Numbered from the stretch's first letter, positions 1,396 through 20,409 are shown. The stretch is DNA of 32,614 nt from Candidatus Thorarchaeota archaeon (GCA_029858305.1 JAOUFI010000022.1:1-32614); one strand, 5' to 3'. The notes: a model not told the origin generated them from the sequence alone. A program made the numbers and translations.

Positions 1396-1448
1396 ATACA
1401 GGTCAGTCATGAGTTATGCATTTCGCTCAGAACTCATCATCTCTGTAT
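1396..1448 (-). ncRNA. Candidate K-turn hairpin (box C/D-like or SECIS-like), function unknown
   Basis: Minus strand: ATACAG-AG-ATGATGA-(27 nt)-CTGA-C-CTGTAT, with a 6-bp outer stem and an alternative inner stem ATGAGTT/AACTCAT. Confidence 0.35.
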
Positions 1449-6502: not shown

Positions 6503-6640
6503 ACCTGCTGAAGAGCTGTTCGAAGAGGGTTATGGTCACTATTTAGCGCTTTGGCTCTGTGAACTCTTATTTGTATGAAAATTGTCTACTTGGAAAGCCT
6601 TTTGTGCAATCCCGCATTGATTATATTTGGATTGAATAAG

Positions 6641-6874
6641 ATGAACATACTAGATAGATTCTTCGACATGTTTGGAAGAAGACGTGCACTTAGGATGGGT
6701 GCTGTATCACCACCAGATGATCTCATTGCTTACCTCTACAAAGTACGCGCTGCAACCTACCTAAAGATTACAGGAAAGACTCTTCCAAACTATAGCATGC
6801 CAGCTGAGAGTGGTGCCGAAGATATGACTCGAAACCTATCACCCTCTCGTAGACTTGCTAGAAAGGGTCTCTAG
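6641..6874 (+). CDS. Small basic hypothetical protein
   Basis: ORF in otherwise unoccupied space. ATG 6641 preferred over 6575 because a BRE/TATA-like GAAAGCCTTTTGT lies at about 6593-6605. No recognisable motif. Confidence 0.5.
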   Translation: MNILDRFFDMFGRRRALRMGAVSPPDDLIAYLYKVRAATYLKITGKTLPNYSMPAESGAEDMTRNLSPSRRLARKGL

Positions 6875-6924: not shown

Positions 6925-6938
6925 GAAAGCATATTTAG
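6925..6938 (+). promoter_or_regulatory. Putative BRE/TATA promoter for the downstream sRNA
   Basis: GAAAGC-ATATTTAG; the TATA-like part lies about 25-32 nt upstream of the predicted sRNA 5' end (6963). Confidence 0.45.
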
Positions 6939-6962
6939 CCTTGTACCGGTCAAACATCACTC

Positions 6963-7039
6963 ATCGGGATGATGATGAATGCAGGGATGGTGAGCGAACT
7001 CATCACCGCTATGACCCGTTAAACCGCAGTCTGACCGAT
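6963..7039 (+). ncRNA. Box C/D 2'-O-methylation guide sRNA (predicted 16S rRNA target)
   Basis: Terminal stem ATCGG(6963-67)/CCGAT(7035-39); C box ATGATGA 6969-75; D box CTGA 7031-34. D guide TTAAACCGCAG (7019-29) is complementary to the recalled archaeal 16S segment CUGCGGUUUAA. Confidence 0.8.
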
Positions 7040-7078
7040 ATTACAGTTCACGAATATAATAAGGAGTAGTAGTAATAC

Positions 7079-7495
7079 TTGTCCCCATTTGTTTGTAACC
7101 ATGATGGTTCGTGTGAAGAGATTAGACTCTGTTGTACTGAAACAGAGATGACCCTATCTCGTGAGGATGCACAAAGAATTGAGTCATTAGGTTACAAAAA
7201 GGAAGATTTCCTAGTCAGAGTGATGGCAGGATTTTGTGAACTCAAAAACGTCGACGGACACTGTTACTTCTATGATCCTGAATCTAAAGTCTGCCGCATC
7301 TATGAGAATCGTCCGGAGGGGTGTAGGTACTACCCTATCATCTATGATGCTAGGAAGAGGAAGTGCATCCTTGACAAGGATTGTCCATCTGCGGTGACAG
7401 TCAGTCGCGAAGAAATCAGGAAGGTCTGCCATAGGGTGAGAAAGCTTGTAGAGACCCTTCGAGAGGAGGCTGCGCATGGTGAGAGCCCTTGCTGA
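7079..7495 (+). CDS. YkgJ-family cysteine-cluster (Zn/Fe-chelating) protein
   Basis: LCC, CYFYD...CRIYENRPEGCRYYP motif, additional C-terminal Cys. Confidence 0.85.
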   Translation: MSPFVCNHDGSCEEIRLCCTETEMTLSREDAQRIESLGYKKEDFLVRVMAGFCELKNVDGHCYFYDPESKVCRIYENRPEGCRYYPIIYDARKRKCILDKDCPSAVTVSREEIRKVCHRVRKLVETLREEAAHGESPC

Positions 7496-8333
7496 TCTAC
7501 ATATTCACTCTAACCACTCGGATGGAATCTACTCTCCAAAACAATTAGTAGATATGGCTATAGACTTGGGACTAGGAGGGATTGCTCTCACAGATCATGA
7601 TACCATTGGAGGTAATAGTGAGTTCTTAATTGAAGGCGATAAGAATGATTTAGCTTGCATCCCTGGCGTTGAGATTAGTACAGAATATCGTGGCTATGAG
7701 TTGCATCTCTTGGGCTATTATGTTCCTAGCGATAGGCCTGAACTACAGGATAGATTGACAGCCTTTAGAGACGAGAGAAACACGAGATTTCCAAAGATGG
7801 TGCAAAAACTAAGAGACCTAGGATTTGATGTAGCAGACTCAGAGGTCGAAGAGATTATGCGAACAGCAGCATCTCCTGGCAGGCCACACCTTGCAAGAAT
7901 TCTCGTTGAAATGGGTGTAGTGATGAATATTGACGAGGCTTTTGCTATGTATCTTGCAGAGGGAAAGCCTGCATACGTAAAACGAGCGCGGCCGGACATA
8001 ACAGAGGGCATCAGAATCTTGAGGGAGGTTGGAGCTGTTCCTGTGTTGGCACATCCTCTATACTACTCAGGAAGTGACCTCAGAAGCCTATTGATAGACC
8101 TTAAGGAGTCGGGTCTATTGGGAGTAGAAGTGGTCTACAATTATGAGAGAAACTCGATTCCTGAAGAAGATACAAAACAGGTAAAGAACGCCGCGAAAGG
8201 GCTTGGACTCATTGAGACCGGGGGTACTGATTTTCATGGAGACAATACACACAACGAACTTGGCAGTATGACTGTTTCCATTGAAGCTATTGCTCAACTT
8301 AGTAGAGCTGCAAGCCTCCTGCGGAACCTCTGA
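7476..8333 (+). CDS. PHP-domain phosphoesterase (TrpH/YciV-like)
   Basis: DLHIHSNHSDG, IALTDHDT, PGVEIS, LHLLGY, GRPHLAR, VLAHP, GGTDFHG. Confidence 0.93.
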   Translation: MVRALADLHIHSNHSDGIYSPKQLVDMAIDLGLGGIALTDHDTIGGNSEFLIEGDKNDLACIPGVEISTEYRGYELHLLGYYVPSDRPELQDRLTAFRDERNTRFPKMVQKLRDLGFDVADSEVEEIMRTAASPGRPHLARILVEMGVVMNIDEAFAMYLAEGKPAYVKRARPDITEGIRILREVGAVPVLAHPLYYSGSDLRSLLIDLKESGLLGVEVVYNYERNSIPEEDTKQVKNAAKGLGLIETGGTDFHGDNTHNELGSMTVSIEAIAQLSRAASLLRNL

Positions 8334-8393
8334 ACCTAGAGATGATGCAGAAACCTTAATCGCTCCTATGAGTTGTAAGAAAGTGGGATCCTA

Positions 8394-9299
8394 TTGCGAG
8401 TTATTGATGCACACGCCCACACATGGACTAGAGATATCATCAGCAAAGAGGACATACATGCAAGACAGATTGCAGCAGAGAGAGCTGGTATTGAGGCTCA
8501 GCTCGACTCCCCCCTCCAAAGATTAACGACTGCAATGGATGCAGGTGGAGTCGAACGCGCAGTGATTCTGCCAATCGATAGTGGTATCTCACAGACCATG
8601 CCCCTGAGCCTTCAAGAGAAGACGGACTGGCATACGAATGAGATTGCTGATTCTCCAAACATCGTTTCATTTGTAGGTATTGATCCTAGAAGAGGAGAAA
8701 ATGGTCTTCGAGAACTGGAACGTGCTGTCACACTCAAAGGATGTAGGGGATTGAAGCTGTATCCTCCGAACGGGTTCTACCCTGACGATGATGCATTTTA
8801 TCCATATTATGAAAAGTGTGTTGACCTAGGGATTCCAATTGTTATCCACACAGGTTTCACTTCGAGATTCAAACATGTGAAATATGCGCAACCAGTCTAT
8901 GTAGACAAAGTGGCAGCAGACTTTCCAACATTGAAGATTGTGTTAGCACATGTTGGAGTCCCATGGGTACATGAGGCGTTAATGGTTGCTTCCAAGAATC
9001 CGAATGTTTCTGTTGACGTGTCGGGATGGCAATTCTTCGCATCCAAAGTGCCAATTAGAGTGTACCAGATGATTGCAGAGGCTAAGCTGAATCGAGTGTT
9101 TCCAAGTCGAATGCTCTTCGGAAGTGATTTTCCTCTTTTTGAATATGCAATGCCCTTGAAGAAATGGGTTGACTTCTTCACCAAGCTTCGAATTCCGGAG
9201 GAGATGATAGACCAAGGATATCCTCAAGTAACAAACGATGAGATACAGATTGTAATGTATGAAAATGCTAAGCGACTCTTCTTTGGTGATAAGACTTGA
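8394..9299 (+). CDS. Amidohydrolase family 2 metal-dependent hydrolase
   Basis: IDAHAH, GLKLYP, PIVIHTG, IVLAHVG, LFGSDFP. Confidence 0.9.
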   Translation: MRVIDAHAHTWTRDIISKEDIHARQIAAERAGIEAQLDSPLQRLTTAMDAGGVERAVILPIDSGISQTMPLSLQEKTDWHTNEIADSPNIVSFVGIDPRRGENGLRELERAVTLKGCRGLKLYPPNGFYPDDDAFYPYYEKCVDLGIPIVIHTGFTSRFKHVKYAQPVYVDKVAADFPTLKIVLAHVGVPWVHEALMVASKNPNVSVDVSGWQFFASKVPIRVYQMIAEAKLNRVFPSRMLFGSDFPLFEYAMPLKKWVDFFTKLRIPEEMIDQGYPQVTNDEIQIVMYENAKRLFFGDKT

Positions 9300-9787
9300 A
9301 GACATTCATTGTCGATGCTATGCTAGGCAAGCTGGCAACATGGCTCCGCCTCACTGGGCATGATACATTTTATTCTACAAAATTGCATGATGACGATATT
9401 ATACGTATTGCACTTGAACAGGAGAGAGTACTGCTCACATCGGATGCAATTCTCGCCAGTCGCGCAAAAGAAACTGGAGTAGAAGTGATGCTTGTGAGAG
9501 GGTCAGTAGACGAAGAGGTGGCGAGTGTCTTTTTACAGTATGGAATCAAGCCAGAGGCGGACCCAGCAAAATCTAGATGTACCAAATGCAATGGTGAACT
9601 GGTTCACATTACAAAGGATGAGAAGAAACAGATTGAAGAGTTAGTCCCAGAGAGGACCTATAATTATTACCAAGAGTTCTGGTTCTGTAAATATTGCAAG
9701 AGCGTCTTCTTCCATGGTGGACAGTGGATAAATATTGATGCCTACATGGAGCGGATAGCAGAACTCATGAACACACTTGATACTTGA
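9296..9787 (+). CDS. Mut7-C RNase (PIN-like) domain protein with zinc ribbon
   Basis: FIVDAMLGKLATWLRLTGHD, RVLLTSD, SRCTKCNG, FWFCKYCKSVFFHGGQW; 4-nt overlap with the upstream gene. Confidence 0.9.
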   Translation: MKTFIVDAMLGKLATWLRLTGHDTFYSTKLHDDDIIRIALEQERVLLTSDAILASRAKETGVEVMLVRGSVDEEVASVFLQYGIKPEADPAKSRCTKCNGELVHITKDEKKQIEELVPERTYNYYQEFWFCKYCKSVFFHGGQWINIDAYMERIAELMNTLDT

Positions 9788-9788
9788 T

Positions 9789-10259
9789 CTATTCTTCTCG
9801 AATAGAAATGTCAAATTCAACAGGAATGCAATCCTTGATGGTCCTAGTCAGATGGCAGTACTCCTTCATTAATTCAATGCAACGTTTTCCTGTTTCGAGC
9901 TCATTCTCTCCAACAACGACCTCGCCAGAAATACTGATACCAGTTACAAGATATCCATTGCCATCGAAGATTGCTATAGCAGTTCCTCGAATCACGAGTG
10001 ATTTGAGATCCATCTCAAAGCGGCGCTGAAAATCAAGGAATGTGTTATTTAGGCAGCCTACCAACGAGGACACGAATAGTTCATCAGGACAGGTGCCATC
10101 ACCTCGTCCTCCAAAGGTTTCTGGAGTATCATAGATGATCTTGCGTCCTGAACTGTCTATGGCAGTACCTCCTGTACGACCATCCCACTCAGACATGGAA
10201 TGATACTCAGTCTTTTCAGGATATTTTGGCTTTACTCGCATATTCACGCGCCCGCCCAT
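9789..10259 (-). CDS. OsmC/Ohr family protein
   Basis: DTPETFGGRG..TCPDELFVSSLVGCL and YCHLTRTI (two conserved Cys). True start may be ATG 10241. Confidence 0.88.
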   Translation of the reverse strand: MGGRVNMRVKPKYPEKTEYHSMSEWDGRTGGTAIDSSGRKIIYDTPETFGGRGDGTCPDELFVSSLVGCLNNTFLDFQRRFEMDLKSLVIRGTAIAIFDGNGYLVTGISISGEVVVGENELETGKRCIELMKEYCHLTRTIKDCIPVEFDISIREE

Positions 10260-10341
10260 AACATTAGTAAATTACGATTAAGCGTTACGGTTGCGATTGT
10301 CAGGAAGCCATTTAAACGGCTATTGAAACCTATCATGGGGA

Positions 10342-11391
10342 TTGCTCATGTCTCGACGGATGAAAGCAGCCATGTACTATGGCATTGGTGATGTGCGATA
10401 CGAGGAAACGGACATACCTGAAATTGGACGGGGTGAGCTCTTGGTGAGAGTCGGAAAAGCCCTTACCTGTGGTACCGATGTCAAGACATACAAGAGAGGA
10501 CATCCGATTCTGATCAAGCATATACCAGCACTCTTTGGTCACGAGTATGGGGGAGCAATTGAAGCAGTAGGAGAAGGTGTTCGACATTTCAAAGAGGGAA
10601 TGCGCGTTGTAGCAACAAACTCTGCACCTTGTGGTGAGTGCTTCTTCTGCAAGAGAGATATGCCCAATCTTTGCGCTGAACTCAAGGATAGCCTAGTTAA
10701 CGGAGCTTTTGCCGAGTATATCCGAGTTCCTGAGGCTGTGGTCCGATGGAATACGCACCAAATACCAGATTCACTCTCCTTCAGAGATGCCGCGCTTACT
10801 GAGCCACTAGCCTGTGTGGTTCATGGTATCGAAGAGTCGAACATTAAGCTAGGAGACACTGTAGTCATCATCGGAGCAGGACCAATAGGTCAAATGATGG
10901 TCATGCTAGCAAAGAAGCATGGCGCATCAACCGTTATTGCCACAGACCTTGCTGATCTTAGACGAGATATTGCTCTGAAAGCAGGTGCAGACATTGTCAT
11001 CAATCCATCAGAGGAAGACCCTGTAGAACGTGTTAGAGAAGAAACCTCCGGAAGAGGTGCAGACGTCGTCATTGAGGCGGTGGGGCTTCCAAAACTCTGG
11101 GAACAAGCAGTGAAGATGACCCGTGATGCAGGTACTACTGTGCTATTTGGCGGAGCTGCATCGGGAACGACATTCGAAGTAGACACTGTGAGATTCCACT
11201 ACGGTCAACTCACACTGAAGGGTGTGTTTCACCTCAAACCGAGGCATGTTGAGCAAGCACTCAAACTCATCATTGCCAAAGATGTGAATCCTGACTTGCT
11301 GATATCGCATGAAATGCCTCTAGAGAAGATAAATGAAGCCTTAGAAATGATGAGCGAAGGCAAGACAATGAAGGTTGCAATATCACCATAG
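10342..11391 (+). CDS. Zinc-dependent dehydrogenase (threonine/sorbitol dehydrogenase-like)
   Basis: TCGTD, GHEYGG, CGECFFCx7C, LTEPLAC, GAGPIG, GADVVIEAVG. Start probably ATG 10348 or 10360. Confidence 0.92.
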   Translation: MLMSRRMKAAMYYGIGDVRYEETDIPEIGRGELLVRVGKALTCGTDVKTYKRGHPILIKHIPALFGHEYGGAIEAVGEGVRHFKEGMRVVATNSAPCGECFFCKRDMPNLCAELKDSLVNGAFAEYIRVPEAVVRWNTHQIPDSLSFRDAALTEPLACVVHGIEESNIKLGDTVVIIGAGPIGQMMVMLAKKHGASTVIATDLADLRRDIALKAGADIVINPSEEDPVERVREETSGRGADVVIEAVGLPKLWEQAVKMTRDAGTTVLFGGAASGTTFEVDTVRFHYGQLTLKGVFHLKPRHVEQALKLIIAKDVNPDLLISHEMPLEKINEALEMMSEGKTMKVAISP

Positions 11392-11410
11392 CCATAGACT
11401 GGTGGGCGCA

Positions 11411-11905
11411 TTGACAAAAAAGAACGATGACACCCTTCGAGGAAAGGCAGATGTCTTCAGAAATTATGCGATTGAGAGGAAACGGTCGATGAAGTTGCGA
11501 GACAATGAACGGGCTCTTCTCAAGATAATACAGGACCTCGATTCAAAATATGAAAACCTTGTTGTAACTGTAGAAGGAAATAGGGATGTTTCGGTTCTTC
11601 GCAACCTTGGTGTAAAAGCACCTATAATCAAAACACAGACTAAGCTTCCTAGGTACAGGATGATTGAACAGATTGTGGAAAGGGCAGGAAAGAGAGGAAA
11701 GGTTCTCATCCTAACAGACTACGATCAAGAGGGCAAAGAGATTTGTAACTATATAGAAAAAGAGCTTGAACTCGCAGGAGTCAAGACGCTCAAGGGCGTA
11801 CGTATTCGGATTCGTACGCTCATGGGTAATTGGAGATGTATCGAAGAGCTAGTTGCACTATTTAAGAGAAGAGACTCGCCAGAGAGCGAGTCTTCTGTGA
11901 CCTAG
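11411..11905 (+). CDS. Small archaeal TOPRIM-domain protein (UPF0292 / RNase M5-like)
   Basis: VTVEGNRDVSVLRNLG and VLILTDYDQEG TOPRIM motifs. Start uncertain; TTG 11411 avoids the overlap created by 11375. Confidence 0.85.
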   Translation: MTKKNDDTLRGKADVFRNYAIERKRSMKLRDNERALLKIIQDLDSKYENLVVTVEGNRDVSVLRNLGVKAPIIKTQTKLPRYRMIEQIVERAGKRGKVLILTDYDQEGKEICNYIEKELELAGVKTLKGVRIRIRTLMGNWRCIEELVALFKRRDSPESESSVT

Positions 11906-11908
11906 TTC

Positions 11909-12937
11909 TTACACTGATACTTGACTTCCACAGTTCGGGCAGATGAATTTGCCACCAGGAATCTCAGAACCGCAGACCCTGCACATCCTAGCCTTCTTTG
12001 CACGCATTTCATCTACCACATCAGCTGTTTGGGGCACAAGCATAAACCTGTTGTCAGTATATGTGAGTCTGAACTCCCGCGGATTTCCAGCCAGATCCAA
12101 GAGGTCAGTAGGCATTGGCAATCGATGTTTATCATCAAGACGGACAACTCTGGTCGTGTCAAGCATGTCAAGGTCGATACCAGCTTGATGAAATCCAGAT
12201 ATGACACCATCACGAAGCTCGACTGTCACATCAGCTTTCGATGCAACCTGTTGACTGTGGGTGACAATGAAGAAAGAGGTTCCAATGGTCTCATTCAATT
12301 CCTGGAATAGATCCAGAATGCGCTCTCCGGTTTCGGGATCAAGATCACCAGTAGGTTCATCGCAGAGAACAAGTCCTTTGCCTTCAGTATCAATCAGATT
12401 GACGAGAGCGCTTGCTATTGCAACCCTTGACTTCTCTCCACCGCTGAGAGTAGTTGCCTTATTCCGTTTGCGTTCTTCGAGCCCAACCATTTTTATAAGT
12501 CTATCAACTCGTTCCTTTCGAATTGCACGAGGTACGCCAGCAATCCTAGCAGCAAGTTCTACATTTTGCCATGCATTGAGATGAGGTAGCAGGTTGTTCA
12601 ATTGGAAGTGGAAACCAATGAAATTACGTCTTGCCTCTGTCAGAACTCGTTCACTTAGTTTGGTAATATCAGTCCTCAAGTTAGCCCAATACACCTTCCC
12701 CACTGTTGCCTTTGTTATTCCTCCAATAACATTGATTAGTGTCGTCTTCCCTGAACCAGAAGGACCGACTACAGCCATAATCTTACCTTCTAGAATCTGA
12801 AGTGATACACCACTGAGCGCCACGACTTCCAATTCCTGAGCCTTGTAGATCTTGTAGCACTCATTCACACTGACGACAACATCATCAGGCAAGTCACTGT
12901 AAAGGTCAAGTTCTTCTTCGATTTCGATTGTATTCAT
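11909..12937 (-). CDS. LolD/MacB-type ABC ATPase with C-terminal AbrB-like module and zinc ribbon
   Basis: GPSGSGKTT, LSGGE, LCDEPTGDLD, VTH; tail VRLDDKHRLPMP... followed by CRVC-x10-CPNC. Confidence 0.92.
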   Translation of the reverse strand: MNTIEIEEELDLYSDLPDDVVVSVNECYKIYKAQELEVVALSGVSLQILEGKIMAVVGPSGSGKTTLINVIGGITKATVGKVYWANLRTDITKLSERVLTEARRNFIGFHFQLNNLLPHLNAWQNVELAARIAGVPRAIRKERVDRLIKMVGLEERKRNKATTLSGGEKSRVAIASALVNLIDTEGKGLVLCDEPTGDLDPETGERILDLFQELNETIGTSFFIVTHSQQVASKADVTVELRDGVISGFHQAGIDLDMLDTTRVVRLDDKHRLPMPTDLLDLAGNPREFRLTYTDNRFMLVPQTADVVDEMRAKKARMCRVCGSEIPGGKFICPNCGSQVSV

Positions 12938-12947
12938 AACGACTACC

Positions 12948-15863
12948 TCACATATTTCTTAATACATCAGCAGGATTTGTGTTGCCAGCTCTACGTGCAG
13001 GGTAATAACAAGCAATTATCATCACCAAACACTCTACTGCGACTGTAGCAATCATCAATAGGAGCGGATAAGTTAGCACCTTTGGGAGAATCGGCCAGAC
13101 AGAGGATATGCCAAAGGTAAGCACGGTCTGTGTATACCCAAATAGAAAACCGAGTCCGAGGCTGATAAGGACCGAGGCGAGAACACTACCTGCAAATTCG
13201 CCAAACACCAAACTGATAATCTGTCTTTTAGTTCCACCAATGGCTCTGAAAAGAGCGTATTCAGGTTCACGTTCAATAACTGCAGAGCCCAAGAATAATG
13301 CAATTGACGCTATGCCCATGGCGGCGCATAGAATGAAACTAATCATTGTTAGTCCCTCTAAGCCTGACACGAATAGTCCGGTAACGGAGTCAGGATCAAA
13401 CTCCATCGTACCAGTGATATAGACGTCTGTAAATAGCAGTGTGTCAAGGTATGCAGTCATTTCAGTTACATCATCAGGCGAGTTAGCGCCCACTAAGAAT
13501 GTTTCAGCTGCAATAAATCCAGTTTCAAAAGATAGGTCATCCAAATTGACCAAGGCAAATCCACCAAGTCCAGGCTGAAATCCAAAGAACGCACCATATG
13601 GGACACCTTCCAAATCCCGTGTAGAGGCCATTCCAAAACCAGGCGCACTCTGCATCATCCCAACCATATAGAACATCACATAGCTATGACCCGTTAATCC
13701 TGCAACATCTATGACAATAGGATCACCAACAGAAACGTTCCAAAGTGATGCATGGTATTCGCTGAGTATTATACCATGTTCTGTGTTCTCAAGAGCTGTT
13801 AGTATGACATCATAACTTGTATCGATAAAACTTGTAGATTTGAAATTCCCAATATCCCGATAGTCAGCTGCGCGAATGCCTTCTAGGTAGAAGCCTTCAT
13901 CATCAACATGTGATAGTGCTTCAATAACTGGAGTCGATCCAGTGACTCCAGAATACCCGGGAAGTGATCCTATCCAGTAGAAAGGTTGTTCAGTTGTTTC
14001 TATCCTTAGCGTTGAGCCTAACGCATAATTCGCCTCGTTTACCAGAGTGTCCTCAAAACTTGCAGTCTGAATCATCATCATTGTGGTTGTGGTAAGTGTG
14101 AGGGTAAGAATCACGAGGAGTGGTATGAATTGCCCTTTCCTTCTCCGAAGGCTTTGTGTTAGATATAGTCGCTTCTCACCCATAATTCGAGACACTCTCT
14201 CCGAAGCACCAGCAGTCACGAGTCGCATCGCTCGTGAACCCAAATATGCCGCTGCAAACAGTAGTAGCGTAGAAACGAGAATCTCGAAGATTGCGGTTTG
14301 ACCAGCCGGATTCAGTAGAACTGGCATCACAAGGAGCACAACAAGCACTCCACCTAGACCAACAGCATAGTAAGAGAAATGGACCTCTTCGGGTATCTCA
14401 TAAGTCAATCTTGTGGTAGGCTGTCCGATCTCAGCTACATCGATTCTTCTGGAAACATGGAAGAGGTAAGCGGCAGGGAGGAACATAGCAATGAGTATAG
14501 CTAGTATCACAGCCTGTGTAGGAATTGCGAGTTCATTCAGAAAGATTTGGTACTGAGAAATATCAAAGGCGAGGAGTCCGATTGAAGATCCCATTAGTGG
14601 CGCAGTTATAATGGTGATACAAATTCCTAGGAATAAACCTGACAAAGCAAGAATCATGGACTCCCACACGAATGCGCTAAATATCTGACCAAATGAAGCA
14701 CCCTTGGATCTTAATGCACTAATTTCACCCTTCTTCTGCGAAACTGATGTCTCAGAGGTGAAAATGGTCAGCATGAGGCTCATAACCATAACAGGAAGAG
14801 CCAGAAGTATCAAAACCTGACTGGCAATGTATGTATTGATGTGCGTTTGAAGATTTTCAATATTAAATAGGCCAATCACCGATAGGGTATCGTCGCTCTC
14901 CTCGATCATTGTTTTCAGGCCTTGCATATTGACTGCTGCCTCTGTTGGACCTGCTGCGATCAAACCATCAGCGGATCCTCGAATAAAGCCCACAGGTGAG
15001 AAGAAGCCATAATTTGTGATCATCTCTACGGATTCTTCACCAAGCTCTTCAGCAGAGATGAGAACTGAATCTCTTATCCCTAATACTCCCTCAAGGTTAC
15101 CCAATGGATCCCAGTTTCGCCTGTACAATTCAGGATAAGAAAGTCCAACTATTGAAGAACGAACAATATCGTAGATGCCTACGACGGTCAGGTTACGTAC
15201 TATCTGTCTGTGAAGAAGGAGAGGATCAAATGGGCGGGTCATGACCGGAGAATAATAGGTGCGAAGTACATCGATAGCGATCTCTGAGCCGACCTCAATG
15301 TCGATGGTATCGTTGCTAACGCTGCGTGCAGTGTCCGCAAAGCGCTGCGAGACAAGAATCTCTCCAGGACCCAAGGAGAGATTGCCTTCCCAAGCAATTT
15401 CCGTGGACCAGACTTCAAGGATTTCGGGGGTTACAACAATAACCCTTCCATCCTTGATTCCTTGCGCATAATTCATTCCAGTTGTGTAGTATGCTTCCCA
15501 CTCAGGCGTTATACCATCAACTCGTAGGATACCGACAGTACTTGGTGTAATATGTGCATACTCGGTGAAAAGACTTTCCAGAGCTAGTGCTTGTGCGTCA
15601 AAGAGTCGTGAATACACCTGACTACCTGCCCCGTTCTGTATGCTAAATTGGTAGGCATTTTGGTCGAAATAGTCCCTTATTGCTAGTCTTGTGCCGGTAT
15701 TGGTCCAAGAAAAGACAGTCGTAGGAAGGGCAATACTAATAGCTAGAATAAGGGCTATTCCCATATTCCGGGTTCGATTATTTTTCAAAGAGGAGAGAGC
15801 ATAGTTGATTGGCCAGAGGCGATTGCCTCTCAAGAGTTTGGATCCATTTTTCATCTTAGCCAT
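12948..15863 (-). CDS. Large FtsX/MacB-family ABC permease
   Basis: Two FtsX repeats (EISALRSKGAS, EYALFRAIGGTKRQI), large extracytoplasmic loops, C-terminal YPARRAGNTNPADVLR. Confidence 0.92.
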   Translation of the reverse strand: MAKMKNGSKLLRGNRLWPINYALSSLKNNRTRNMGIALILAISIALPTTVFSWTNTGTRLAIRDYFDQNAYQFSIQNGAGSQVYSRLFDAQALALESLFTEYAHITPSTVGILRVDGITPEWEAYYTTGMNYAQGIKDGRVIVVTPEILEVWSTEIAWEGNLSLGPGEILVSQRFADTARSVSNDTIDIEVGSEIAIDVLRTYYSPVMTRPFDPLLLHRQIVRNLTVVGIYDIVRSSIVGLSYPELYRRNWDPLGNLEGVLGIRDSVLISAEELGEESVEMITNYGFFSPVGFIRGSADGLIAAGPTEAAVNMQGLKTMIEESDDTLSVIGLFNIENLQTHINTYIASQVLILLALPVMVMSLMLTIFTSETSVSQKKGEISALRSKGASFGQIFSAFVWESMILALSGLFLGICITIITAPLMGSSIGLLAFDISQYQIFLNELAIPTQAVILAILIAMFLPAAYLFHVSRRIDVAEIGQPTTRLTYEIPEEVHFSYYAVGLGGVLVVLLVMPVLLNPAGQTAIFEILVSTLLLFAAAYLGSRAMRLVTAGASERVSRIMGEKRLYLTQSLRRRKGQFIPLLVILTLTLTTTTMMMIQTASFEDTLVNEANYALGSTLRIETTEQPFYWIGSLPGYSGVTGSTPVIEALSHVDDEGFYLEGIRAADYRDIGNFKSTSFIDTSYDVILTALENTEHGIILSEYHASLWNVSVGDPIVIDVAGLTGHSYVMFYMVGMMQSAPGFGMASTRDLEGVPYGAFFGFQPGLGGFALVNLDDLSFETGFIAAETFLVGANSPDDVTEMTAYLDTLLFTDVYITGTMEFDPDSVTGLFVSGLEGLTMISFILCAAMGIASIALFLGSAVIEREPEYALFRAIGGTKRQIISLVFGEFAGSVLASVLISLGLGFLFGYTQTVLTFGISSVWPILPKVLTYPLLLMIATVAVECLVMIIACYYPARRAGNTNPADVLRNM

Positions 15864-15875
15864 TCATCTCACCTC

Positions 15876-18776
15876 TCACATATTTCTAAGCACAACAGCA
15901 GGCTCGGTTCTTGACGCTTCCCGAGCCGGCAAGAATGCCCCTATTACCATGGTCATTATCTCGATAAAAAGCACAATCGACAGAAATTGTATTGGAAATG
16001 AGATTGTGGCGACGAGGGTTCTTGAGAACGGACTCATGTTATTCAGTAGGATTCCCATGACATATCCAAAGACTGCACCAAGAAGTATGCTGAGCACAAG
16101 TGATGCAATCACAACACCTGTAAACTCAGAGAATACCATTGTAACAACTTGGCGTCTTGATCCCCCAATGGCACGAATTACAGCATACTCCTTCCTACGC
16201 TCCCGTACTACTGAACCAAGAGAAATTGATAGTGCAAAGATACTAAGGATAAGGGACATGACAAATCCAATAGAGAATAATCCTCCTACTGTGTTGAGGA
16301 AGAGTGCAGTATAGAGGGAGCGACTCTTCAGGTCGAACTCCTGAGGAGTATTGGGATAGACACCAGGGAGAAGACGAAGGTCTTCAATCAGGCTCGTGCG
16401 ATTGACATTGTCCTGAAGACTTGCAAGGAACAATTCTGTGGTTTGGCTATCAATCTCAGTTGCAACAAACTCCAAATTGGTGATAGCAAATCCAGCATCT
16501 GCAGCCTGATATCCAAATCCAGGACCGAGAGAGGAGGGAGGGATGTCTGTTACCGAAGCATACCCAAAACCGGGTGCACTGTAAACGACTCCAACAACGA
16601 TGAACTGAACAATCTGTGTCGCTCCCACACCACTCATCTCAAGATTAAGAGTGTCCCCTGCAGTCTTATTCCATACCCTTGCATGGTACTGACTGATGAT
16701 AATTCCATTGGGAACTGCTGCTAATGCTGTCAATATTTGAGTCGCGTCAATACCACTAAAACTGGACTGGTCAAACTTTCCTATGAATGCATATTGTTCA
16801 GGATAAAGTGCTTCTATCGTAAGTGTTTCAGAACCCAATTTTGCCCAAGTTCTCAGGACAGGCATCGCACGTTCAATTCCAGGATAAGCACCAATGGTAT
16901 CGTTGAATGAGAACTCTCTGAGAGTGCAGTCAACACGGAGATCTGCTCCAAGCGCATATTCTACCTCTCTATTCAAATCCACTCTAAGGCTCTCAGATTG
17001 GACAGCAAATGCAATAGTCGTTGACATGGTCAGTGCTAAGACAACCATCAGTGGGATAATGCGCCCCTTTCTCATCTTCAAGTAGCCAGCTGAAATGACA
17101 TTCTTCTGGCCCAATAGGAAGGACATTCTAGCAGAAACCTTTGCAAGACCAATTCGTGATACTCTGGATCCATTATATGCAATGAAGAACCATGCTGCTG
17201 TTCCAAGAGCGAGCTCCATCATAAAGAAGATTGGATTCTTTGGGAGGATGAACATCATTATGACTACTATAGCCAAGAGTAGCACGGAAGCTCCGACAGT
17301 GAATCCATGAGACTCAACCTGTTCATTCGGATCTTCGGTAGCTTCCATTAGTGAGAGTCCAATCTCTGTCTGTGCAGCCTTGCGAGCCAGATAGAGAATA
17401 AAGAGCATACTTGGTAAAACAGTAAGCCCGATAGCGCGTAATATCGTACTGGAAGTGAGTACTGTGTTGAAGATATAGTACGTGTATATTCCCCAGTCAA
17501 AGACCATGAAATTAATAGATGCAGGAATAAGTGGTGCGAATAGGATGCTGAAGATGACACCTATGAAGATTGCAAGTGATGATATTATCAGGGTTTCCCA
17601 GAGGAATATTGATGAAACTTGGGAATAACTGGCACCCTTTGACCGAATGATTCCTACCTCTACCGTCCTTGGTGCCATGAAGGTGTCTGCTGCAAAGACG
17701 GAGAAGAAGAGCGCGAGGAGTATGACAGGGAGGCCAAGAATGGAGAGGGATAATGTGGACACATAGGTATCAATGGACGTCTGCATTTCATCGATTGCAT
17801 CAGAACCGAGCCATGTGATGTGAAACCGTTCAGCAGTACGGTATATCATATTATACAGATTAGTGGCAACATTCTCAGGACCTGCAGCCGCAAGAGCTGA
17901 TGAGGACACACGTACGAGGGTAGATGGTGCAAAAAAGCCGTCTTCCGAAAGAGTGTCTGGGCTGATTGAGTTCTTCAGAACGAAGATACTATCTCGAAGC
18001 CCAAGGACAGGGTATCGTATATTTGTGATTGCCAAGTTTGCACGGTATTGTGAAGGCATTGCTTGCTCAACAATGGAGTTGCCCGTCTTGGGCTCAAAGA
18101 TTCCAACGATTGTCAAAGATGTAAGACTCACTCTGCCAAGCGTTCCAATCTGTGCTGGATTGGTCGTTCCTGTTCCTGTCAGAAGTTCAACATCAATCTG
18201 ATCGCCCAGTTGAAGTGAAACATTGAAGACATAATGAACATATGAGATAAACTGGGATGCTACAATAGTTTCACCTGGTTGAAGCTCGGATGAGCCTTGA
18301 TACCAGAACTCATTAGCTGTGACACTTAGGAATTCGTTATCGATAAAAACAACTCTGCAGTCTTTCAATCCATCACTATAGATGGTTCCTTCAATATCAT
18401 ACATCGTTGTATCCGGGAGCCCTGTCCCATTCACTAAACCAATTGTTGAATTTAGCCGATAAGTGCTCTCAACAAAGGGATCTTGCTGCATATAGCTTTC
18501 AGCCAGAGCTAAATCTGCGGGAAAACCACTTTCTGCGGATACATCAAACTGATAGGAGTGCTCACCGAGGTATTCGTAGATGCTGACATAAACACCAGTA
18601 TCAGCCCATACCATTGTTGAAGCAAAAAGACTGATGCCTAAACTGAGTGTCAATGCTAGACTGATTGCTCTAAAAGGATTGGCACGAATTGTACTGAGAG
18701 CGTACGATAGTCCATACCGGCTATTTCCCTTGGACTTTGATTTTCTAGATTTCCGTGCCGCAGCCAATCGTATCAC
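15876..18776 (-). CDS. Large FtsX/MacB-family ABC permease (paralog of the adjacent permease)
   Basis: EVGIIRSKGAS, EYAVIRAIGGSRRQV, LPAREASRTEPAVVLRNM; collinear with 12948-15863. Confidence 0.92.
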   Translation of the reverse strand: MIRLAAARKSRKSKSKGNSRYGLSYALSTIRANPFRAISLALTLSLGISLFASTMVWADTGVYVSIYEYLGEHSYQFDVSAESGFPADLALAESYMQQDPFVESTYRLNSTIGLVNGTGLPDTTMYDIEGTIYSDGLKDCRVVFIDNEFLSVTANEFWYQGSSELQPGETIVASQFISYVHYVFNVSLQLGDQIDVELLTGTGTTNPAQIGTLGRVSLTSLTIVGIFEPKTGNSIVEQAMPSQYRANLAITNIRYPVLGLRDSIFVLKNSISPDTLSEDGFFAPSTLVRVSSSALAAAGPENVATNLYNMIYRTAERFHITWLGSDAIDEMQTSIDTYVSTLSLSILGLPVILLALFFSVFAADTFMAPRTVEVGIIRSKGASYSQVSSIFLWETLIISSLAIFIGVIFSILFAPLIPASINFMVFDWGIYTYYIFNTVLTSSTILRAIGLTVLPSMLFILYLARKAAQTEIGLSLMEATEDPNEQVESHGFTVGASVLLLAIVVIMMFILPKNPIFFMMELALGTAAWFFIAYNGSRVSRIGLAKVSARMSFLLGQKNVISAGYLKMRKGRIIPLMVVLALTMSTTIAFAVQSESLRVDLNREVEYALGADLRVDCTLREFSFNDTIGAYPGIERAMPVLRTWAKLGSETLTIEALYPEQYAFIGKFDQSSFSGIDATQILTALAAVPNGIIISQYHARVWNKTAGDTLNLEMSGVGATQIVQFIVVGVVYSAPGFGYASVTDIPPSSLGPGFGYQAADAGFAITNLEFVATEIDSQTTELFLASLQDNVNRTSLIEDLRLLPGVYPNTPQEFDLKSRSLYTALFLNTVGGLFSIGFVMSLILSIFALSISLGSVVRERRKEYAVIRAIGGSRRQVVTMVFSEFTGVVIASLVLSILLGAVFGYVMGILLNNMSPFSRTLVATISFPIQFLSIVLFIEIMTMVIGAFLPAREASRTEPAVVLRNM

Positions 18777-18778
18777 TC

Positions 18779-19555
18779 CTAGTCAATTCGCGCTTTACTA
18801 GATGATTTCTTGTACACTTTCCTTGTTCCTACATCGACACCACTTGTCTTGAAGAAGTCACCAACAAGCTCATCGACAAGAACACCATCACGCAAGAGAA
18901 GGATTCTGTCTGCCATTCGAGCAGTTTCAGGATCGTGGGTTGCAGCAATGACCGCACGGTTTTGATTCTTAGCTAGTTCCCTCATCAATTGAATTATCTC
19001 GCCCCCTGTCTTATGGTCTAGATCACCTGTGGGCTCATCGCACAAGAGAACTGAGGGGTCATTGGCAAGAGCTCGGGCAAGTGCCACACGGGAACGCATT
19101 CCTCCAGACAGTTCGTGAGGCATGTGCTGGAAGCGATGACTGACTAAGACAGTTTCAAGGAGTTTCATAGCCCTCTCTCGACGTTCATCAGCAGGAATAT
19201 CATCAAGAAGCATTGGTACCTCTACATTCTCGAGAGCAGTGAATATGGGCAAGAGATGCTGATCTTGGAAGAGTACTCCAATCTTGTGACGGCGTACTTC
19301 AGACATGGCATCATCATTAAGCTTGGTGATATCCTGACCATCAACAAGAATTGTGCCAGAGGTCGGGGTGTCAAGACCTCCAATTAGGTTCAGGAGTGTT
19401 GTCTTTCCAGATCCGCTTGCACCTACAATGGCAACAAACTCACCGCGGTATACTGTGAGGTTTGTACCCTGCAACACTTTGATGACTCGGGAGCCATCTT
19501 GAAAGTCTCTCCGAACATCAATACATTCAACTGCGGCTTGCTTCTCGGTGGCCAA
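18779..19555 (-). CDS. LolD/MacB-type ABC ATP-binding protein
   Basis: GASGSGKTT, LSGGM, LLCDEPTGDLD, ATHD. Confidence 0.95.
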   Translation of the reverse strand: MATEKQAAVECIDVRRDFQDGSRVIKVLQGTNLTVYRGEFVAIVGASGSGKTTLLNLIGGLDTPTSGTILVDGQDITKLNDDAMSEVRRHKIGVLFQDQHLLPIFTALENVEVPMLLDDIPADERRERAMKLLETVLVSHRFQHMPHELSGGMRSRVALARALANDPSVLLCDEPTGDLDHKTGGEIIQLMRELAKNQNRAVIAATHDPETARMADRILLLRDGVLVDELVGDFFKTSGVDVGTRKVYKKSSSKARID

Positions 19556-19688
19556 AATGATTCACCAATCTCTCGAGGAATTATTCCCCGTTTTAAGGGA
19601 ACTGCTTCGAGCACTTTGTTTGAGCTAAGAAGTCATTTGTTTAAGAACGAAACGGCCATAAGTTGCACAGACATCATGTGAAAACAAC

Positions 19689-20186
19689 ATGCGAGTCTTT
19701 GCCATTTCAGGATATTCGGGAACAGGAAAAACGTCACTCGTTGAGCAGGTCATTAAAGCTCTTAGTGAAGAGGGATACACTGTAGTCACTGCAAAGACTT
19801 CAATTCATGATGTAAAAGAAGTCGAAGGGACCGATACATGGAAACATATCAAAGCGGGTGCTAAGACTGCCGCTATTCTTGGACCTCACAGTGCCGTCAT
19901 TCGACACGCAGTCGGAAAGAGTCTTCAAGATATTTTTGCTGGCATTGACGCGGACTTTCTCATTATAGAAGGCATGAAGGAGAGCAAGATTCCAAAAATC
20001 TGGTGTATCGGAAACACTGATGTAGACAAAGGAAAAATCCCAGAGTCAACTAAAGCTGTGGTTGGTTGGGTACGAAGGGAAAAAGGGGTGGAGTTAGAAG
20101 TGCCATTCTTGAAGACTGATGATATTGGGAAGATTGTTTCGATCGTGAAACAAGAGGCGATAGAACTATCCCAAGATAAAGCCTAG
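19689..20186 (+). CDS. mobB: Molybdopterin-guanine dinucleotide biosynthesis protein B
   Basis: ISGYSGTGKT P-loop, EGTDTWKH..AGA, DFLIIEGMK...PKI. Confidence 0.9.
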   Translation: MRVFAISGYSGTGKTSLVEQVIKALSEEGYTVVTAKTSIHDVKEVEGTDTWKHIKAGAKTAAILGPHSAVIRHAVGKSLQDIFAGIDADFLIIEGMKESKIPKIWCIGNTDVDKGKIPESTKAVVGWVRREKGVELEVPFLKTDDIGKIVSIVKQEAIELSQDKA

Positions 20187-20202
20187 CTACTTCAGGGGAT
20201 GG

Positions 20203-20273
20203 GACGGCTCAGATACCCCTAAGGTCGATCATTTGTTCACAATCTCGCAAATAAGGAGCTCATCACTGCCGCC
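20203..20273 (-). ncRNA. Box C/D guide sRNA (target unresolved)
   Basis: Minus strand: GGCGGC-A-GTGATGA(20266-60)...ATGATCG (C'-like, 20232-26)-ACCTTAGGGGTAT-CTGA(20212-09)-GCCGTC; 6-bp terminal stem (one G-U pair) in K-turn geometry. Confidence 0.7.
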
Positions 20274-20409
20274 ATGATTACCAGAATTTCTACATGTATT
20301 AGTGTTGCCATTCAGCAACTACTAAACTGAGGCAATAGAGCTTTCGAATGCACATTGACACTTGGTCAAAGGGCAATACTCTTCTTACTGAGATACTGAT
20401 TGCATCTCG

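Follow-up and report, generated by a model that had tools for sequence, protein, structure and literature searches.

Two short intergenic elements in a stretch of DNA from a Candidatus Thorarchaeota archaeon (GCA_029858305.1, JAOUFI010000022.1:1-32614; 32,614 nucleotides (nt), the whole of which we call the window) carry the boxes and terminal stems of box C/D small RNA (sRNA) genes. We conclude, with a probability of about 0.82, that they are two separate archaeal box C/D sRNA genes, RNA 1, which would be directed to 16S ribosomal RNA (rRNA), and RNA 2, an orphan, and that a third candidate locus is a chance motif. Both loci are conserved among relatives, their helices covary, RNA 1 is complementary to 16S rRNA in the register of a guide, and the genes for the partner proteins are present. 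From sequence, we infer that RNA 1 and RNA 2 would be transcribed, assembled into ribonucleoproteins (RNPs) and active in methylation. The genome under study (G000; 3.04 Mb, 88.9% complete) belongs to an Asgard archaeon, as had been supposed: the closest records to the ABCE1 protein of the window are titled Candidatus Thorarchaeota, with identity up to 97%. The predicted features of the two genes are listed here, with positions counted from the first nucleotide of the window.

6963-7039, plus strand: RNA 1, 77-nt double-guide box C/D sRNA gene (conservation, covariation)
6963-6967, plus strand: 5' strand of the RNA 1 terminal stem, ATCGG, pairing with CCGAT at 7035-7039; pair types UA19/GC6/UG4 and CG27/UA6
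6968, plus strand: first bulge base of RNA 1, G6968
6969-6975, plus strand: RNA 1 box C, ATGATGA; GATGA invariant, the preceding A and T nearly so (n = 40)
6976-6989, plus strand: RNA 1 D' spacer (guide), 14 nt in G000 and 13 nt in most relatives
6990-6993, plus strand: RNA 1 box D', GTGA; GA conserved, first G pairs with a C in box C' (32 of 37 distinct sequences)
6994-7009, plus strand: RNA 1 internal stem-loop, GCG at 6994-6996, a 10-nt loop and CGC at 7007-7009
7011-7017, plus strand: RNA 1 box C', ATGACCC, preceded by one base (T7010); family consensus N-AUGAMCC
7018-7030, plus strand: RNA 1 D spacer (guide), 13 nt; core AAACCGCA invariant in 40 of 40
7031-7034, plus strand: RNA 1 box D, CTGA; invariant in 40 of 40
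20203-20273, minus strand: RNA 2, 71-nt box C/D sRNA gene with an orphan D spacer (conservation, covariation)
20268-20273 and 20203-20208, minus strand: RNA 2 terminal stem, GGCGGC with GCCGTC; pair types CG29/UA5/UG3 and GC36/AU1
20260-20266, minus strand: RNA 2 box C, GTGATGA; TGATGA invariant, first base nearly so or R (n = 37)
20247-20259, minus strand: RNA 2 D' spacer, 13 nt; variable, 26 variants in 37 sequences
20243-20246, minus strand: RNA 2 box D' variant GAGA (GUGA in other genera); pair G28-C47 invariant
20233-20242, minus strand: RNA 2 10-nt kink-loop (K-loop) TTGTGAACAA; UURUGAACNN in most genera, no stem predicted inside
20226-20232, minus strand: RNA 2 box C' variant ATGATCG; ATGA and CG invariant or nearly so
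20213-20225, minus strand: RNA 2 D spacer ACCTTAGGGGTAT, 13 nt; highly conserved
20209-20212, minus strand: RNA 2 box D, CTGA; invariant in 37 of 37

Each locus was searched with its flanks by BLAST against 87 genomes of the order (86 besides G000). RNA 1 has matches in 49 of the 86 other genomes, distributed over many genera, and RNA 2 in 35; identities for the two RNAs range from 75 to 97%, and the matches are confined to the RNA body (query positions 25-100 of 121 for RNA 1 and 19-86 of 104 for RNA 2). The combination of box C and D guide that characterizes RNA 1 was found in 58 of 85 family genomes and in 4 of 314 others, and the reversed control gave 0. A model of the RNA 1 family (R1) matched 15 of 26 sampled family genomes, with one weak match (E-value 0.003) among 124 genomes of other Asgard families, and the corresponding model of RNA 2 (R2) matched 12 of 26 sampled family genomes and the sister family (E-value 5e-5). 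Model R2 also gave weak full-length matches in other Asgard families (G001, G126, G141, G108 and G096; E-values 5e-5 to 5e-3), which may be unrelated C/D sRNAs caught through their common architecture.

The helices are conserved as helices. Locus 1 reads ATCGG-G-ATGATGA...CTGA-CCGAT, with a 5-base-pair (bp) stem, and locus 2 reads GGCGGC-A-GTGATGA...CTGA-GCCGTC, with a 6-bp stem that includes one G.U pair. In the alignment of RNA 1 (n = 40: G000 and 39 of the 49 positive genomes, after removal of four spurious low-score rows from unrelated loci), 92.2% of the cells in helices are paired, six pairs show double changes, and none of 500 shuffles scored as high. The alignment of RNA 2 (n = 37, after removal of one copy truncated at a contig end) gave 91.1% paired cells, again six double-change pairs and 0 of 500 shuffles. 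When the register of the helices was slid, pairing in RNA 1 was 15-42%, and for the two RNAs together it dropped from 91-92% to 15-52%.

The initial annotation had described two or three stem-closed C/D loci with exact spacing. Loci 1 and 2, at 71-77 nt, are exactly as described there; locus 3 (1396-1448, minus strand) is not. Its perfect boxes are only 27 nt apart, and an A.C mismatch adjoins the kink-turn (K-turn). We rejected it as a third sRNA: only partial matches of 25-27 nt were found, in 2 of 85 genomes, and the stem is out of register. Because it is unconserved and its stem is out of register, locus 3 is a chance motif, and its BLAST search also serves to show, as a negative control, what neutral intergenic DNA gives.

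The internal boxes differ between the two RNAs. In RNA 1 they enclose a 3-bp helix that is 96.4% paired and whose outer pair varies among GC13/AU12/GU10. T7010, the single base before box C', mirrors the stem-N-RUGAUGA spacing of the terminal stem. Because this covarying stem repeats the terminal geometry internally, we read the C'/D' site of RNA 1 as a true K-turn and not a K-loop; its register is deduced from the stem, and with box C' placed in this way both spacers are 13 nt long (14 for D' in G000). According to a 2021 review (PMC7994747), a K-loop at C'/D' is the norm for archaeal sRNAs. RNA 2 appears to have such a loop. Its C'/D' consensus is G[A/U]GA / AUGA[U/A]CG, in which the invariant pair of D' G and C' C is the reverse of the usual C (CUGA) and G (UGAUGA). 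The second base of D' covaries with box C' (AU24/UA5/UU8, including eight U.U), and covariation of this kind beside the G-C pair (3b/3n) is expected where a K-turn or K-loop has its non-canonical stem.

The D spacer of RNA 1 identifies a predicted rRNA target. Counting upstream from box D or D', the base opposite the fifth spacer position was taken as the target; numbering follows the 16S rRNA of G000. For all 13 distinct variants of the spacer (40 sequences), the best rRNA site is 16S 916-92x (UUGCGGUUUAAU), with 10-12 bp, and in all 13 the fifth base upstream of box D pairs with C919. At least 9 bp at this site are kept by 39 of the 40 homologues, and shuffled spacers equalled the match of the G000 spacer to 16S 916-927 in 2 of 300 and 4 of 200 cases. 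These pairings predict C919 of 16S rRNA as the base that this spacer most likely selects for 2'-O-methylation (Cm919). The D' spacer, GAAGUAGGGAUG, is nearly as conserved. Its commonest variant forms 12 bp with 16S 1350-1361 (score 11; 1 of 200 shuffles as good), and 16S 1350-1362 ranks first for 12 of 18 variants, which cover 30 of 40 sequences. Another three variants (seven sequences) prefer 16S 559-569 (C562), and three have diverged. Its predicted target is most likely C1354, alternatively C562, of 16S rRNA. We take C919 and C1354 to be about positions 952 and 1382 of Escherichia coli. To our knowledge, their equivalents are not 2'-O-methylation (Nm) sites in yeast or human 18S rRNA.

One match to the RNA 1 pattern outside the family (G235, L183:1494-1560, from another Asgard family) resembles a C/D RNA of about 66 nt. 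It has a perfect 5-bp terminal stem (TATGA/TCATA), a box C' AUGACC and a D spacer, UUAAAACCGCAAA, that lies in the guide register of RNA 1, so the same 16S cytidine may be targeted outside Thorarchaeota.

The protein machinery that these RNAs would require, the presence of which had been proposed as a check, is encoded in the genome. Profile matches identified fibrillarin (302 bits) and Nop5 (222 bits) next to each other on contig C205, and two members of the L7Ae family, both on contig C50. There is one match to the Nop domain, and no pair of the Nop56/Nop58 type. The genome has one gene each for 16S rRNA (C205:137705-139206) and 23S rRNA (C205:65200-68309), on the same strand but unlinked, about 70 kb apart, and a 5S gene another 84 kb further on (C205:222956-223075). 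Together, the C and D boxes, the exact register of the terminal K-turn, the predicted internal C'/D' site, the match between RNA 1 spacer and rRNA and the protein genes are the marks of archaeal box C/D sRNAs, which suggests the following mechanism. Each RNA would be transcribed from its own TATA-type promoter. Boxes C and D, clamped by the terminal stem of 5-6 bp, would form a K-turn, and the D' and C' boxes would provide L7Ae with another site. In RNA 1 this would be a K-turn closed by a stem, and in RNA 2 a K-loop of 10 nt in which the G-C pair is swapped. L7Ae, Nop5 and fibrillarin would assemble on these sites, and fibrillarin would 2'-O-methylate the target base, the one facing the fifth spacer position upstream of D or D'.

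Sequences upstream of both RNAs are consistent with promoters, as the earlier proposal of independent transcription implied:

6925-6940, plus strand: RNA 1 promoter-like element, a purine-rich GAAAG resembling a B recognition element (BRE), then a TATA-like ATATTTA at 6931-6937
20296-20302, minus strand: RNA 2 TATA-like box CTAATAC, 22-28 nt upstream of the 5' end

The TATA-like box of RNA 1 ends 25 nt before the 5' stem, a distance that is the same in the 40 aligned homologues, and the A+T fraction upstream of these is 0.8-1.0 at -28 to -25; we read the element as a probable archaeal BRE/TATA. Homologues of RNA 2 (n = 37) have CTAAAAC, CTAATAC or CTATTAT at the same distance, with an A+T fraction of 0.9-1.0 at -27 to -24. 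In essentially all aligned relatives of both RNAs, the box thus lies at about -29 to -23 from the stem, and this fixed distance points to putative promoters belonging to the RNAs themselves. Downstream, the two loci differ. A gene for a CxxCxxCC-domain protein (7079-7495) directly follows RNA 1 on the same strand, and in relatives an AGGAG lies about 5-10 nt after RNA 1, with no oligo-T or hairpin between. The closeness of this gene and the AGGAG suggest that RNA 1 may be cut from the leader of that gene. RNA 2 and a MobB gene (19689-20186) converge at the 3' end of that gene, and no gene lies downstream of RNA 2 on its own strand.

Neither gene stands out by its motif. The window contains eight TGATGA-N20-50-CTGA pairs compared to 8.5 expected, and eight were reached in 59 of 100 shuffles. 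Across the genome there are 540 C..D pairs, of which 12 have a stem of at least 4 bp in the exact register and seven a stem of at least 5 bp; 30 Markov-1 simulations gave 12.7 +/- 3.2 and 4.7 +/- 2.4, respectively, and slid stem registers used as a control gave 7-17 and 0-9. Only 40 of the 540 pairs fall outside open reading frames (ORFs) of at least 90 amino acids (aa), and since such ORFs cover 90.6% of the genome, intergenic DNA shows no enrichment. The expectation that the pattern would be commoner than in shuffled sequence was thus not borne out: counts equal to those of simulated and slid controls, the outcome named beforehand as refuting it, are what we found at the level of the pattern. 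Loci 1 and 2 rise above chance because they are conserved and covary, and not because of a motif count. Two of the seven genome-wide matches with a stem of at least 5 bp do sit in this 1% of the genome, where our arithmetic gives about 0.08 expected, because both loci are, on our reading, real genes within a conserved syntenic block. In at least a dozen relatives, as here, RNA 1 and RNA 2 share a contig and are separated by about 13 kb, and the presence of two in one window therefore reflects synteny and not clustering.

Two further candidates, found as strict matches or through complementarity, C8:1018-1083 (stem of 8 bp, and 11 bp matching 23S rRNA) and C134:8519-8562, were rejected as C/D RNAs since they are not conserved in the genus: they have matches in 1 of 27 and 2 of 27 genomes, respectively, which are partial and outside the RNA. 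The strict matches that are left, four with a stem of at least 5 bp (on C40, C117, C127 and C148), fall in ORFs of at least 90 aa. A scan of the genome for the full architecture (a stem of at least 3 bp, box C, D' at 10-14 nt, C' 11-14 nt before box D, and box D) gave three matches, of which the two intergenic ones are loci 1 and 2; simulated genomes gave 0-2. A target-first scan of intergenic DNA (an xUGA box, a spacer scoring at least 10 against rRNA, and an xUGA box) gave 24 matches compared to 14-26 with shuffled spacers, and thus no excess. The generic Pyrococcus C/D model RF00095 reached a best E-value of 1.2 on the genome and also matched bacterial controls. A guide of the Cm1402 type was rejected as well, the only match of at least 10 nt with a box outside ribosomal DNA (rDNA) being in a coding ORF on C54. 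These results suggest that the assembly holds no sign of a large set of C/D RNAs, although sRNAs with weak boxes could have escaped. According to PMC7994747, C/D sRNAs number seven in the mesophile Methanococcus maripaludis compared to 52-128 in thermophiles. The small set of archaeal plan found here looks consistent with what is expected of a mesophile.

Four other explanations have to be weighed against two archaeal sRNA genes and a chance motif. One is that, at all three loci, short motifs have come together by chance in intergenic DNA rich in A/T, as the motif counts at expectation and the lack of conservation of locus 3 and two other candidates would allow. We consider this extremely improbable, as the conservation of loci 1 and 2 between genera coincides exactly with the extent of the RNAs and is joined by covariation of the stems; judged from the alignments, conservation and covariation refute the chance explanation for loci 1 and 2, and it stands for locus 3. 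It is also very unlikely that the elements are K-turns that bind L7Ae in cis in the leaders of messenger RNAs, with a role in regulation or processing, instead of guides acting in trans. The position of RNA 1 directly upstream of the CxxCxxCC-domain gene, with which it may share a transcript, speaks for such a role, but archaeal C/D sRNAs are commonly processed from longer transcripts (PMC7994747), a role in protein binding explains neither the eight invariant nucleotides at the core of the D spacer nor the exact 16S register, and RNA 2, convergent with the MobB gene, has no same-strand gene downstream. The initial annotation itself proposed that the loci belong to a dispersed, snoRNA-like repertoire, that is, one resembling small nucleolar RNAs, intermediate between archaeal sRNAs and eukaryotic snoRNAs. 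The Asgard host, RNAs of 71-77 nt with terminal stems of 5-6 bp, the stem-closed K-turn in place of a K-loop at C'/D' of RNA 1, a promoter-like box for each RNA and spacers of 13 nt compared to the 10-12 nt quoted in PMC7994747 can all be cited in its favor. On the other side, the pattern is not enriched, only two loci pass the full-architecture scan, the target-first scan is at control level and the three other candidates are unconserved, so a dispersed set of guide RNAs was not found. Both RNAs follow the symmetric two-guide archaeal plan in a genome with a single Nop-domain gene, RNA 1 is restricted to a single family within the phylum, and the traits that suggest an intermediate are modest. 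These data argue only weakly for a repertoire or an intermediate, which we regard as quite unlikely.

Several of our own results weigh against two guide RNA genes. The motif is at chance frequency in both window and genome. The relatives are kin, and the genome counts are therefore not independent, and the target tests on their spacers used the rRNAs of G000 as a stand-in. In G000 itself, the D' spacer of RNA 1 matches rRNA no better than shuffles (92 of 300 and 81 of 200 as good), and its core GUCCCUGCUU is common to the two 16S sites (C1354 and C562). For the D spacer of RNA 2, 12 variants were compared with 16S, 23S and 5S rRNA, RNase P RNA, signal recognition particle (SRP) RNA and 39 transfer RNAs (tRNAs), and 32-100 of 100 shuffles were as good; because no stable RNA is matched better than chance, we treat RNA 2 as an orphan. 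The family form of this spacer, ACCUUAGGGGUAU (13 nt, with invariant AGGGGUAU), can form a 4-bp mini-hairpin (ACCY/GGGU), and since changes in length fall inside the spacer, in the loop of this hairpin, a hairpin fits them better than a long antisense element does. RNA 2 might then be an RNA with a C/D scaffold but a role other than methylation, or a guide for something other than rRNA, with the D spacer as a hairpin or short recognition element. The orphan spacer, the hairpin (98% paired, with insertions and deletions only in its loop), the unusual conservation of the 10-nt K-loop and the retention of three of four hairpin pairs in G035, the sole genome with a diverged spacer, would agree with this. 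But the hairpin is weak (one double change; a 3-nt loop on 4 bp that include a G.U), the tRNA set consists of 39 ARAGORN calls in an 88.9% complete assembly, so that a target could be missing, and orphan guides are common among archaeal sRNAs (PMC7994747). We find this explanation of RNA 2 unlikely. One form of it, a family-conserved Asgard C/D scaffold that does not methylate mature rRNA or tRNA and acts in folding or processing of precursor rRNA like U3 or U14, or on a non-rRNA target, is doubtful enough that we would give it little weight; if true, RNA 2 would represent a non-methylation role of C/D RNPs from before eukaryotes arose.

Other searches for a partner of RNA 2 identified none. 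Its D' spacer pairs over 12 bp with 16S 1442-1453 in only three sequences of the G000 type, with 4-10 of 100 shuffles as good. The complement of the spacer core has 83 matches across the genome, none in a known stable RNA, and a scan of the genome that tolerated G.U pairs gave 720 unspecific matches. Pairing between the two spacers of RNA 2 was rejected, as no helix is kept in more than 68% of the sequences.

In G000, the D'/loop region of RNA 2 is complementary over 11 bp to the anticodon arm of tRNA-Met(CAT). We rejected RNA 2 as a guide for C34 of this tRNA: the pairing stretch extends over D' and the K-loop, and C34 would face the sixth base instead of the fifth. Five other genera have the identical tRNA arm, but in them the stretch of RNA 2 varies and loses pairing, which makes the match a coincidence. 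Joardar et al. in 2011 reportedly found that sR-tMet of Haloferax volcanii, of about 75 nt and with an unconventional C'/D', guides Cm34 of elongator tRNA-Met. RNA 2 resembles sR-tMet in length, in the unconventional C'/D' and in the 11-bp complementarity; because of the sixth-base position of C34, the overlap with D' and K-loop and the failure to track the tRNA, we do not file it as a member. The tRNA-Met(CAT) gene itself (G000:C170:6308-6446, L193) has an intron of about 60 nt, segments of which (GGGGUCAA ... GAGAUGAGAA) are conserved, like the exons, in five other genera.

The K-loop of RNA 2 was also considered as a guide for the tRNA T-loop (Cm56), a role that is unsupported: a bulge is needed, the position is one base off, and the loop is lost in genera g8 and g10. 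None of 86 genomes of this Thorarchaeota family yielded the tRNA Cm56 methyltransferase Trm56 (PF01994), compared to 4 of 4 archaeal controls, and genera without RNA 2 also lack Trm56. Renalier et al. in 2005 reportedly found that Cm56 in Pyrobaculum is made by a C/D sRNP instead. A search of this genome for a T-loop guide yielded no convincing one.

Compared with known systems, RNA 1 and RNA 2 are closest to the archaeal double-guide C/D sRNAs (the sR RNAs of Pyrococcus and Sulfolobus; RF00095). They have the same order of C, spacer, D', C', spacer and D, equal spacers of about 13 nt and a terminal K-turn; the fifth-base rule likewise places a conserved 16S cytidine, and the protein genes are present. 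They differ from the sR families in their terminal stems of 5-6 bp and in size, the archaeal sR models in Rfam (sub-threshold matches) having 53-58 positions compared to 71-77 nt here. They differ from the archaeal norm in the stem-closed C'/D' of RNA 1 and the 10-nt K-loop with swapped G-C of RNA 2 (GWGA / AUGAWCG), and from thermophilic archaea in what appear to be very few C/D RNAs per genome, consistent with the seven of M. maripaludis. With eukaryotic box C/D snoRNAs they have in common terminal stems of 5-6 bp, a size of 70-80 nt and, in RNA 1, an internal D'-C' stem-loop, but the fixed archaeal spacer length and the single Nop5-type gene are unlike the eukaryotic system. The eukaryote-like traits (terminal stems, 71-77 nt and the stem-closed C'/D' of RNA 1) are real but small.

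Nothing in the window attains the gathering score of an Rfam family. Below threshold, the highest scores are 17.9 and 20.3 bits, compared to cut-offs of 41-100, and these sub-threshold matches are to C/D-box families in 16 of 16 cases for RNA 2 and 8 of 11 for RNA 1, mostly SNORD and snoR. The suggestion that standard annotation misses such RNAs is thus correct for loci 1 and 2, which, by their sequence and predicted structure, are two new C/D families of known archaeal type, absent from Rfam. In our literature search, no paper dealt with C/D sRNAs from Thorarchaeota or from Asgard archaea, and the word Asgard occurs 0 times in the 2021 review PMC7994747. Two conserved families are now defined by alignments, structures and covariance models. 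They provide a testable prediction, Cm919 and Cm1354 in the 16S rRNA of Thorarchaeota, and a case from nature of an archaeal guide whose C'/D' K-turn is closed by a stem, together with a well-conserved orphan. We infer that they may also have a bearing on the origin of the eukaryotic snoRNP system.

Other features were observed along the way. On contig C8, two stretches of about 137 nt (467-603 and 980-1120) are 68% identical, which suggests a local repeat or a paralogous segment. In the window, a tRNA scan found none, and a 99-aa ORF between ABCE1 and RNA 1 (6575-6874, plus strand) has no Pfam match. Between the two sRNA genes lies an operon-like block (11909-19555, minus strand) in which two ATP-binding cassette (ABC) ATPase genes flank a pair of paralogous FtsX-type permeases, each of about 970 aa (12948-15863 and 15876-18776).

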